Origin: a virus
Taxonomy: Duplodnaviria; Caudoviricetes
IMG/VR virus record: IMGVR_UViG_3300002026_000014
Coordinates: 1 to 64,000 of that record
Direction: 5' to 3' (one strand)
DNA: 64,000 nt
Shown: piece after piece, positions 20,416 through 37,241 of the stretch
How positions within the stretch are numbered: the stretch's first letter is position 1
Layout: every line of letters begins with the position of its first letter
Position numbers and translations under genes: made by a program
The notes under the pieces: model-generated
Database searches by the model: none
What the model saw: only the letters and a program-made list of their open reading frames with translations
Told to the model about the DNA's origin: nothing

Positions 20416-20470
20416 TTTAAAATCCTTAAAATATTGATTATTTTTTAACTAAACTAATAGTGATATGACA

Positions 20471-20502
20471 TAAAAATCCCTATTTCACAATAGGGATTTT
20501 TA
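20471..20502. terminator. 14-bp stem hairpin with TATG at its minus-strand end
   Basis: taaaaatccctatt-tcac-aatagggattttta; cata at 20469-20472. Confidence 0.75.
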
Positions 20503-20511
20503 TATTAATGT

Positions 20512-20640
20512 TTAGCGAAAATTACCTGCTATACGTGCTTGCAATTCAGCAGCAGCTTTCATTGCAGCAGCCATAGCTGCAAACGTTGCAAACATATCAC
20601 TTTGCGATTTAAGAATCGCGTCGATTTGCTCTTGTGTCAT
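20512..20640 (-). CDS. Unannotated 42-aa Ala-rich helical protein
   Basis: GGAG 8 nt before ATG; MTQEQIDAILKSQSDMFATFAAMAAAMKAAAELQARIAGNFR*; flanked by two inverted repeats. Confidence 0.7.
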   Translation of the reverse strand: MTQEQIDAILKSQSDMFATFAAMAAAMKAAAELQARIAGNFR

Positions 20641-20667
20641 TTTAAATACTCCATAAAAAAAGAAATG

Positions 20668-20699
20668 TCACACTCAGATTAATATTAATCTGAGTGTGA
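20668..20699. repeat. 32-bp perfect palindrome, no loop
   Basis: tcacactcagattaat|attaatctgagtgtga. Confidence 0.95.
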
Positions 20700-20722: not shown

Positions 20723-20810
20723 TTAAGGCCAAGTTGCGTTAGCATCAGCCCAAACAATATCAGCGTCACCCCAAACTGCACCTAAACCAGAGGCTACACC
20801 ATCAACGAAA
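20723..20810 (-). other. Putative +1 programmed frameshift site (TTT_CGT_TGA) and 27-aa extension
   Basis: +1 frame reads F-VDGVASGLGAVWGDADIVWADANATWP* with Trp every 7 residues; that frame is closed by TGA just upstream and has no ATG/GTG/TTG. Confidence 0.6.
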
Positions 20811-21896
20811 ATAGCTCACTTTAACGCGGTCACCAGATAATGGTGCAGCAGCTAAAGTGATGTCCTTTCCAGAGATTGTATAGTCGTTTGAAGCACCTGG
20901 CTCAAGCATTAAACCGTTTAGGAAAACGGATTCGCTGCCAACGTAAGGTGTGTTAGCTAAAACAAACAGTGCATTAGTACCGTCGATAGAACCAACGGGT
21001 GTTTCACGAACAACTAGTTTGTCGTAGGTGAGACCGCTGCTAACTGCGCCTTCCAGAACAACCAAACGGGTGTCAAGTGCTGTATCAGCATCTGCGCGAG
21101 CAGTAGCTTCAGCAGTGATGGCAACACCACGTGCAGTGACTTCGGCAGAAATAGCAGCAGTATGTACAGCATCAGCATTCGTACGCGCTAGAGCTTCAGC
21201 GTCAATGTTTGATTGCAGTGTCGTGTCAGCAGTAGCACGAGTTGTAGCTTCAGCAGAAACGGCAGTGGTACGAGCAGAAGCTTCAGCGGCGATTGCATCA
21301 GACAGAGCAGTGTCTGAATTGGTACGTGCAGTAACTTCATTAGCCAATGCAGTTGCAGCGCTTGTGTCAGCAGTGGTACGAGTCAAGACTTCAGCAGCTA
21401 GTGCGGCATCTTGAGCGTTATCTTTAACCAATTGAGCAGCAACAGCAGCAGCCAAGTCAGCAGCAGCAGTAGCGCCACCAGCAGCAACCAGGTCAGCAAT
21501 GTCAGCAGCCAGAGCAGCATCACCAGCGATACGTGCATCAGCTTCGGTCTTCAGAGCAGCATCAAGAGCTAGAACAGCAGCTTTGATAGAAGCAGAAGCG
21601 CCTAGATAGTTAGTAGTACCGGGAACGAAAGAGCCGTCAGCTTCCAGGCCAGCACCAGAGCGAGTCTGATTGACCATAGTGGTGATAGCACCTTGGAGGG
21701 TGGTATCTGCGCCTTGGAATGCAGTCGTCAGTGCTTCAACAGCAGCCATACGTTCTGCATCAGTAGACATCGTGTTAAAGATGCTAGTGATATTTGACTC
21801 AATTGCAGCCAATGATGCTTCGAAAGCTGCATCAATACGGTCCCGTGGGATCGTGGCTAAACGGATCTGCAAACCGCGAATAGAGGTAGAACTCAT
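20802..21896 (-). CDS. Ala-rich coiled-coil virion fibre with C-terminal beta module
   Basis: Repeats AEATTRATADT/AEADARIAGD; C-terminal TPVGSIDGTNALFVL...VFLNGL...DYTISG; visibly GC-richer than flanks. Confidence 0.75.
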   Translation of the reverse strand: MSSTSIRGLQIRLATIPRDRIDAAFEASLAAIESNITSIFNTMSTDAERMAAVEALTTAFQGADTTLQGAITTMVNQTRSGAGLEADGSFVPGTTNYLGASASIKAAVLALDAALKTEADARIAGDAALAADIADLVAAGGATAAADLAAAVAAQLVKDNAQDAALAAEVLTRTTADTSAATALANEVTARTNSDTALSDAIAAEASARTTAVSAEATTRATADTTLQSNIDAEALARTNADAVHTAAISAEVTARGVAITAEATARADADTALDTRLVVLEGAVSSGLTYDKLVVRETPVGSIDGTNALFVLANTPYVGSESVFLNGLMLEPGASNDYTISGKDITLAAAPLSGDRVKVSYFR

Positions 21897-22005: not shown

Positions 22006-22698
22006 TCAAACAGTGTAACTCACCACCATATTATCTGTCATATCCAAAACCAAAGAATTATTAGTCCAGTTTAAAACATTGTTGTTTATTGTGTAATCAT
22101 GAATTTCTCCATAAGCATACGTTAAACCATTGACTGTTAAAATTGAATTCTCTTTGTCTAATGGCATATGATTCAGATTAAAAACCATTTGTCCATTTTC
22201 AGTCACTGGAAGTTGAGTAGTGATTTTACTGGCAGCTACCGGTAAACCATTACTCAACTTATCCATAATATTTATAATGTCGTTTAGCATCGCTGCTAAA
22301 GTACTACCACTATAAACGTCAGGGTAGACATTATCTACTGCTGGTATTGCTAATTTTAAATTTGGTGTGGTTTGAGACACCAAACAAAATGTACTGTTAG
22401 TAGGTAAATCTATTTCCTCTTCCAAACTATCCCAAAGAATAGTGCCAGATATCCTCACAGTATCTATGTATTCTAAACTCGTAAATACATATCTGTTTGT
22501 AACACCTACCACACCCATGAATGTGTTTTTATCTGTGGCGGGTACATATATAACAAACCCTAAGGCAATGTCGTAAGCACCATTACCTGTAAAATCTGTT
22601 TGATTATTGAAGAGAGCATTCTCGAATGTATATTCACCAGGGTTTCCCGTAGGCGTAAATGAATCTACATAAAGAGCGCCATTTACAATTCTGGCCAT
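22006..22698 (-). CDS. Putative virion protein with C-terminal beta module
   Basis: C-terminal GQMVFNL...LTVNGL.YAYG..HDYTI...MVVSYTV. Confidence 0.55.
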   Translation of the reverse strand: MARIVNGALYVDSFTPTGNPGEYTFENALFNNQTDFTGNGAYDIALGFVIYVPATDKNTFMGVVGVTNRYVFTSLEYIDTVRISGTILWDSLEEEIDLPTNSTFCLVSQTTPNLKLAIPAVDNVYPDVYSGSTLAAMLNDIINIMDKLSNGLPVAASKITTQLPVTENGQMVFNLNHMPLDKENSILTVNGLTYAYGEIHDYTINNNVLNWTNNSLVLDMTDNMVVSYTV

Positions 22699-36893: not shown

Positions 36894-37241
36894 TCAATAG
36901 CTGTCACCATATGACCTAGTTTGCCTAGTGTTCTCAGCATTCCATTTTTGCTGAAACGTCATACCAGTATTGTTAGAATTAACCGGTGCTTCAATTTTAC
37001 ATTTTTTCAGAACAAATTTATTGATACAAAGTATGTTGAAATCTTCTTGTTCGGGATCAATACTGCCTTGGAGAAGATGATACATGCCATCTAATTTAAT
37101 AGCTGTCAGTTTTTTATCTTTTCTAATACCGTCTATAACAACAATTGAGTTTTTATTAACAACCTCAATGTGACCCGAACTGCAAAGTTTTTCTAAACTA
37201 TCGCAGTTATATTTATCCCCACGAAAACTAAAAGTAGCCAA
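36894..37241 (-). CDS. Hypothetical protein
   Basis: 115 aa; TTG start after AAGGA. Confidence 0.6.
   Translation of the reverse strand: MATFSFRGDKYNCDSLEKLCSSGHIEVVNKNSIVVIDGIRKDKKLTAIKLDGMYHLLQGSIDPEQEDFNILCINKFVLKKCKIEAPVNSNNTGMTFQQKWNAENTRQTRSYGDSY

Follow-up and report, generated by a model that had tools for sequence, protein, structure and literature searches.

The 64,000-nucleotide (nt) stretch of DNA analyzed here, called the window, covers positions 1 to 64,000 of the IMG/VR virus record IMGVR_UViG_3300002026_000014 (Duplodnaviria; Caudoviricetes). Its minus strand carries a gene for a fibre-like protein of 364 amino acids (aa), which ends with the codons TTT CGT and a TGA stop; in the +1 frame, an open reading frame (ORF) of 27 codons begins within the CGT codon and continues past the stop. 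Comparison with related loci indicates that a fraction of the ribosomes very probably shift to the +1 frame at the tetranucleotide UUU_C, in what would be a real programmed frameshift producing a second, longer form of the fibre protein. The features of the site, where E denotes the exit site of the ribosome, are the following:

20802..21896, minus strand: 0-frame fibre-like gene, 364 aa, ending ...VKVSYFR*
20816..20819, minus strand: GUGA element, which holds the +1-frame TGA; conserved in the family
20811..20813, minus strand: E-site codon UAU (Tyr362), TAT or TAC across the family
20807..20810, minus strand: proposed shift site UUU_C, formed by the Phe363 codon TTT (20810..20808) and the C of CGT
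20807..20805, minus strand: Arg364 codon CGT
20802..20804, minus strand: 0-frame stop TGA, ending the 364-aa product; TGA or TAA in homologues
20726..20806, minus strand: +1-frame tail ORF, 27 codons, VDGVASGLGAVWGDADIVWADANATWP, without a start codon of its own
20723..20725, minus strand: +1-frame stop TAA, ending the putative 390-aa trans-frame product
20658..20699, minus strand: hairpin resembling an intrinsic terminator, followed by a T-rich tail; 14-bp stem at 20699..20668, 24 nt past the +1 stop

The 3' end of the gene reads GTG AGC TAT TTT CGT TGA. A +1 shift at UUU_CGU_UGA had been proposed from the letters alone (the sequence-only reading), and the description on which the proposal was based was recovered to the base: the AGC TAT TTT CGT TGA end, the tail with its stop at 20725-20723, and the three tryptophans at tail positions 12, 19 and 26. 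From TTT_C onwards the +1 codons are GTT GAT GGT and so on, down to TGG CCT TAA. It had also been claimed that this frame is closed upstream and holds no ATG, GTG or TTG; it is shut by a TGA (20818..20816) two codons 5' of the shift site, and none of the three codons occurs in the tail frame. The asserted likeness between tail and gene-body codons holds as well, since G+C content is 50.6% in the tail and 49.9% in the gene body, with matching codon style; it is 21.8% in the adjoining intergenic DNA and 36% in the genome. An open frame of 27 codons would be found in intergenic DNA of 21.8% G+C with a probability of about 0.065, and the arrangement of site and open tail, which recurs in 15 further loci, is beyond chance. 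The homologues also have a hairpin and a T-run just past the +1 stop, and in one homologue lacking the tail (locus L164) a hairpin is found immediately 3' of the 0-frame stop. The location of the putative terminator past the +1 stop speaks in favour of the frameshift.

About 56 homologous proteins, drawn from a large number of independent metagenome assemblies, have lengths of 363-379 aa; two more have 426 aa, and nearly all end in ...YFR*. DNA was examined for 18 distinct family loci, mostly obtained from a metagenome scan and from exact-protein look-ups; protein scans of IMG/VR produced one close locus only, and a nucleotide pattern scan of IMG/VR for the site gave no match. In 16 of the 18 loci (the window and 15 further ones, 46-80% identical to the window at the aa level), an in-frame TTT_C is followed by a +1 ORF, open for 26-58 codons, whereas the +2 frame closes early, its median open length being about 8 codons (Wilcoxon p = 0.0015). 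The conservation of both site and +1 peptide in homologues, which the sequence-only reading had named as a check, was found in these 16 loci, with three invariant Trp in 13 of them. When all the loci examined were scanned in six frames, the Trp motif was found only behind TTT_C, and never in frame with a gene.

The Phe codon at the site is under synonymous constraint. It is TTT in 16/16 loci, although TTC predominates in the gene bodies, where it makes up 63 of 81 Phe codons (78%) and TTT the other 18; no other in-frame TTT_C is present in any family gene body. UUU is also the only codon with a tRNA able to re-pair at +1 within the four-codon stretch delimited by the +1-frame TGA and the 0-frame stop. 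The Tyr preceding it is invariant throughout the family, and its conservation is probably structural, because tail-less members keep it too.

Slippage of tRNA from UUU to UUC is not the only event that would yield the long form: an identical product would result from slippage of the RNA polymerase, or from 1-nt deletion variants in the phage population, at the T run, which counts four T's in the window (TATTTTC). Transcriptional slippage needs a homopolymer run of about 6 or more. Five loci (L086, L087, L185, L190 and L191) read TAC TTT C and are left with three U's, which argues against such slippage, three T's being far below the run lengths known for it or for slipped-strand variation (reviewed in PMC5009743). 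Moreover, no in-frame fusion with the tail occurs among the homologous proteins, about 60 in number and from independent assemblies, and an event at the nucleic-acid level is held to be very improbable. An assembly error as the source of the split frame is ruled out by the number of independent assemblies, and not by reads.

The codon following TTT is CGT in 10 loci, CGC in 4, CGG in one and CCG (Pro) in one (L191). The 0-frame stop comes straight after CGN in 13 of the 16 loci, and one codon later in L161 (CGT CCT TAA) and L163 (CGT AAA TAA). Because the stop can sit one codon on, and CGN can be replaced by CCG, UUU_C is the sole invariant of the site. The originally proposed UUU_CGU_UGA signal stands as far as the motif and its +1 ORF are conserved in 16 loci, with two cases of joint loss, and has to be shortened to UUU_C in its invariant part.

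The position of the stop directly after CGN in 13/16 loci could also mean that the shift takes place one codon later, with the 0-frame stop in the aminoacyl (A) site and its first U skipped, in the style of prfB, antizyme and the tsh gene of phage PSA, to give the junction ...YFR-DGV...; stop codons are classic +1 stimulators (PMC5009743). The codon in the peptidyl (P) site would then be CGU, CGC or CGG, CCU in L161, AAA in L163 and CCG in L191, none of which re-pairs at +1 and none of which is conserved, and the invariant TTT against a TTC background would be left unexplained. In most cases U follows the stop, which in E. coli makes for strong termination, and this would also count against a stop in the A site. 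In the stop-stimulated +1 class the stop stands next to the slippery codon; here UUU is followed by a sense codon, and the stop comes 1-2 codons on. We regard a shift at the stop codon as improbable.

Two loci do not carry the tail: L164 (TTC TAT ACT GCT TAA) and L165 (CTG CGC TGA) lack UUU_C, and in both of them all frames are free of a tail. In the family tree L165 groups with L085 (100/100) and L164 with L189 (81/87), that is, in separate tail-bearing clades. Since the two are nested in different clades of this kind, motif and tail were lost together at least twice, independently. The features distinguishing the class of UUU_C slippage sites, a +1 ORF open past the 0-frame stop and a UUU_C that co-varies with the presence of the tail, are thereby both found in this family.

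Thirteen of the 16 tails align to the pattern W-[GD]-x4-9-W-x6-7-W-[P/x], in which the three Trp are invariant. The description of the tail as a Trp heptad is correct for the window, with its tryptophans at 12, 19 and 26, but a strict spacing of 7 residues is not kept across the family, where the two intervals are of 7-11 and 7-8 residues. Synonymous turnover is evident within the alignment: one Ala column includes all of GCA, GCT, GCC and GCG, one Thr column all four ACN codons, and one Gly column GGT, GGA and GGC. Positional entropy is highest at third codon positions (1.29, compared to 1.05 at first and 0.96 at second positions), the pooled ratio of non-synonymous to synonymous changes per site (pN/pS) is 0.66, and length differences are in multiples of three. 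According to these signatures, the tail appears to evolve as a protein-coding sequence.

In the remaining three loci the same UUU_C site is followed by an unrelated tail of 58 residues, rich in Gly and Ser, in which GSSPEA..(N/E)F.F occurs twice and Trp is absent; the claim of a Trp tail behind the site is therefore true of 13 loci out of 16, and the other three have the following type instead:

L086:3591-3764: Gly/Ser/Phe-type tail, +1 ORF
L191:971-1144: Gly/Ser/Phe-type tail, +1 ORF
L087: Gly/Ser/Phe-type tail, +1 ORF

This second type is conserved at the protein level. Since it is nested among Trp-tail lineages on the tree, the tail type has been replaced, with the site retained.

These data also bear on the idea that the downstream frame is untranslated, either as the decaying relic of an in-frame C-terminus after a 1-nt insertion, or as a conserved non-coding element such as a 3' untranslated region or a binding site. 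The tail alone is predicted not to fold and has no recognisable family, two points in favour of this idea. A relic would however gain stops and frameshifts, yet the frame is open in 16 loci down to 46% identity; indels come in threes, synonymous changes have left the Trp, Gly, Ala and Thr columns intact, and the tail matches the gene in G+C content and codon style. A second, unrelated tail type is likewise open and conserved behind the same site, no conserved RNA structure is found, and the synonymous constraint on TTT would be unexplained. A frame that is not translated is accordingly rated as distinctly improbable.

The chances that the tail is a separate small protein with independent initiation are rated as close to nil. 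A 36-aa ORF (P0124) has been called from an internal Met in the tail of the L161 type; this tail is the only one with such an internal Met, while 15 of the 16 have no ATG, GTG or TTG before the Trp motif and no Shine-Dalgarno (SD) sequence, and in most loci the tail frame opens just 2 codons 5' of the site. P0124 (equivalent to L161:2609-2719) is the result of a public gene caller annotating the tail as a free-standing ORF, and the tail is therefore already present in protein databases, under a wrong label.

The parent record is an 80.7-kb IMG/VR virus record of about 30% estimated completeness. Window genes for a tail sheath, for a large terminase and for the beta subunit of a phiKZ-type multisubunit RNA polymerase identify the source virus as a jumbo myovirus of the phiKZ-like kind. 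Next to the gene under study lie those for a 1101-aa collagen-like tail fibre and for an 886-aa fibre with an S74 chaperone domain, forming a fibre cluster. The AlphaFold model of the 364-aa protein (predicted local distance difference test, pLDDT, 83) shows an N-terminal helical hairpin followed by two further elements:

residues 104-284: predicted coiled-coil shaft, a single helix of about 180 residues
residues 294-363: predicted C-terminal beta-sandwich, a docking-type domain

The beta-domain resembles docking domains of phage tailspikes, neck proteins and fibres, including the N-terminal region of CBA120 TSP4 and many BFVD fibre proteins. A search of PDB sequences with the family gave no match, and at the protein level the match among deposited phages is gp359 of Bacillus phage G, limited to the beta-domain. 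The long helix, the docking-like beta-sandwich and the fibre-gene neighbours support the earlier attribution to a fibre-type protein; as modelled, it has the architecture and the genomic setting of fibres and tailspikes, and is likely to be similar to a trimeric fibre. In the model the final beta-strand of the C-terminal domain is V358-F363, and the shift site thus falls exactly where the folded protein would end, a coincidence that we count in favour of the frameshift.

Two other genes of the window, 10814-11653 and 22006-22698 (both on the minus strand), terminate in a paralogous copy of the beta-sandwich, ending ...VSYRTTA* and ...VSYTV*, respectively. Identity is 42% for 10829-11089, and neither paralogue has a TTT_C site or an extension. 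The codon usage of the fibre gene is unlike that of the genome, with 50% G+C versus 36%, a preference for TTC among the Phe codons, of which 73% are TTT in the window as a whole, and an abundance of GCT and CGT; very high expression or recent acquisition may be the reason.

The events at the site can be pictured as follows. UUU_C lies two codons before the end of what would be a trimeric-fibre-like structural gene. Translation would mostly end at ...Tyr-Phe-Arg-stop, yielding the 364-aa protein. On a minority of ribosomes, the P-site peptidyl-tRNA-Phe would re-pair from UUU to UUC while the A site, with CGN (CCG in one lineage), is still empty. The product would be a sub-stoichiometric form of 390 aa, in which Arg364 is replaced by Val and followed by the three-Trp tail; its junction peptide would be VSYF-VDGVASG..., and the expected C-terminal tryptic peptide is VSYFVDGVASGLGAVWGDADIVWADANATWP. 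The tail would take over precisely where the last beta-strand of the docking domain stops, and a few fibres, or fibre chains, per virion would gain an extra binding or docking element.

Several results weigh against a programmed frameshift at UUU_C. There is no DNA-level relative among deposited phages, and no cultured phage carries the gene. The tail-bearing loci are mutually related, and their counts overstate independence; the strongest phylogenetically independent signals are the two separate co-losses and the tail swap. The tail alone is modelled by AlphaFold as a coil (pLDDT 56), predicted to be unstructured. A profile of the tail found no in-frame counterpart in longer proteins, nor among 1.84 billion representative proteins, so that the status of the tail as a protein module depends on comparative signals only. 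Matches among the 1.84 billion representatives were the family's own tail as the 36-aa ORF, one unrelated repeat protein, and weak FG-GAP-like repeats, the latter judged to be non-homologous; a Pfam search with the tail gave no match even at E=10. No 3' RNA stimulator was detected, as the RNAalifold consensus reaches -4.6 kcal/mol, with no covarying pair and no conserved structure. The sole possible 5' element is the 4-nt GUGA, located 5 nt 5' of UUU in 13/16 loci. Finally, the Arg codons that these genes use most are CGU and CGC, and no slow A-site codon is obvious; for this reason the efficiency of the shift may be only at error level.

With regard to modulators, the codon at -3 is GTG in 13 of the 14 loci having Val there, versus 19% in the gene bodies, and the codon after it always starts with A, even where the amino acid changes. 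The +1-frame TGA formed by GUGA is kept in 13/16 loci. GUGA may act as a guard stop that restricts access to the tail frame, or it may pair weakly with the anti-SD sequence, as an SD-like element. No tRNA genes were found in the window.

In the 44 ORFs taken as window genes, 43 in-frame TTT_C are observed, compared to 67 expected from codon and first-base frequencies, and TTT before T is somewhat low too. This mild depletion could reflect avoidance of slippery UUU-pyrimidine sites or plain dinucleotide bias, and is compatible with slipperiness in the host, without proving it.

A broader and more tentative interpretation, possible although rather doubtful at present, is that UUU_C works as a conserved translational 'port', displaying different C-terminal tails sub-stoichiometrically on one fibre. 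At least two unrelated tail types would use it, Trp-x6-10-Trp-x6-7-Trp and the Gly/Ser-rich one with repeated GSSPEA..F.F; jumbo phages would then tune or diversify a docking or adhesion element by decoding, and the tail frame would be accessible over just four codons, owing to the conserved guard stop in GUGA.

As to what the tail might do, its three invariant Trp, the short, polar, Asp/Asn-rich spacers between them and its location at the very end of the docking domain suggest a linear motif by which aromatic anchors would enter a partner; this could be a different component of the fibre or a saccharide surface. It would most likely be a largely extended peptide, becoming ordered only on its partner, be it a fibre component or a host surface ligand. 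Since only a fraction of the chains would carry it, the tail could single out one chain in each trimer, or a small number of fibres on each virion. Glycosylation sequons (N-x-T or D-x-N-x-T) were also considered; they are present in some tails (DANAT, DQNAT), absent or blocked by Pro in others, and were dropped.

Slippage on UUU_C has been demonstrated at UCC_UUU_CGU for PA-X of influenza A (PMC3498833), and +1 shifting at UUU_CGN has been inferred for amalgaviruses (PMC5052127). The site described here is similar to both in its P-site UUU to UUC core, in the A-site codon, usually CGN, in the lack of an elaborate RNA stimulator and in the conservation of the motif at synonymous positions (PMC3498833, PMC5052127). 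Those sites, however, function on eukaryotic ribosomes, in RNA viruses, lead into a long internal overlapping ORF and are thought to depend on the rarity of CGU; here the ribosome is bacterial, the virus is a jumbo phage with double-stranded DNA (dsDNA), and only 1-2 codons separate the site from the natural stop, with UAY instead of UCC in the E site and, in one lineage, CCG in the A site. Since CGU and CGC are the commonest Arg codons here, the rare-A-site logic of PA-X is not obviously applicable. The parallel to UUU_CGN sites drawn by the sequence-only reading is upheld for the UUU_C core.

Among phages, +1 programmed frameshifting extends virion proteins in the tsh genes of Listeria phages PSA, A118 and A500 (CCC_UGA) and in cps of PSA (PMC5009743). 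Those cases also combine a short major form with a C-terminally extended minor one, made by a +1 shift near the gene end, but the slippery codon is CCC, stimulated by a stop or a pseudoknot. Here, at UUU_C, the A-site codon is a sense one and no structure was detected; the fibre gene is of an unrelated family, and what it would gain is a short Trp motif, not a domain. The extended capsid or tail variants of T7 (gp10A/10B), T3 and Lactobacillus phage A2 are likewise minor products, generated by a -1 shift on heptanucleotide-type sites (PMC5009743).

UUU_Ynn sequences are especially prone to +1 shifts on bacterial ribosomes, with no need for an adjacent stop (PMC5009743, citing Fu & Parker 1994 and Schwartz & Curran 1997). 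The E. coli examples (argI) share the UUU-pyrimidine +1 shift with the present site, but are translational errors or reporter constructs, and the one natural use proposed in bacteria, UUU_UGG in Yersinia YopN-TyeA, was not confirmed by mutagenesis (PMC3789692). Here, in contrast to both, the site is evolutionarily maintained along with a functional-looking +1 ORF. Another bacterial point of comparison is prfB, whose product is release factor 2 (RF2). Its autoregulatory +1 site is AGGGGG UAU CUU UGA C. At both sites an NUU codon in the P site would slip by +1, the E-site codon is UAU, and a purine-rich element lies 5' of it; prfB needs an A-site stop and a strong SD three nt upstream, whereas here the A-site codon is a sense one, and only GUGA is conserved, 5 nt upstream.

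What is new here is the setting, the gene family and the tail; the mechanism itself was already known in principle. In the literature searched, no UUU_C +1 site has been described in a bacteriophage and no frameshift in jumbo-phage fibre genes. If the frameshift is real, it would be the first well-supported +1 frameshift of UUU_C type in a bacteriophage, and would extend the class formed by PA-X and amalgaviruses to bacterial ribosomes and dsDNA phages; were the role as a port confirmed, bacterial ribosomes would have their first case of a UUU_C +1 frameshift in natural use and free of a stimulator. Programmed +1 shifts are rare in bacteria and phages and are hard to spot, annotation tools mainly seeking -1 heptamers or stop-adjacent CCC/CUU. 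The comparative support is in this case unusually clean, consisting of synonymous constraint, two independent co-losses and a tail swap behind one site. About 60 metagenomic fibre genes would be mis-annotated as ending in ...YFR, and a C-terminal element of 26-58 residues, possibly binding a receptor or a partner, would be missing from predicted proteomes. GUGAGC UAU UUU CGU would represent a minimal natural sequence for the study of unstimulated +1 slippage.

The other in-frame TTT_C sequences of the window include one gene, 36894-37241 (minus strand), in which TTT_C (ACG TTT CAG) is found 20 codons before the stop and opens a +1 ORF of 34 codons, 14 of them past the 0-frame stop. It is the sole other window gene in which an in-frame TTT_C opens a +1 ORF beyond the 0-frame stop, and the arrangement is probably due to chance. 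A 42-aa ORF located 3' of the fibre gene (20512-20640, minus strand) also ends in TTT CGC TAA, as the sequence-only reading had pointed out; its +1 frame adds three residues only (AKH*), and the resemblance looks coincidental. Between this ORF and a gene for a 178-aa adaptor, an AT-rich palindrome with a 15-bp stem is present at 20470-20503 (plus strand).

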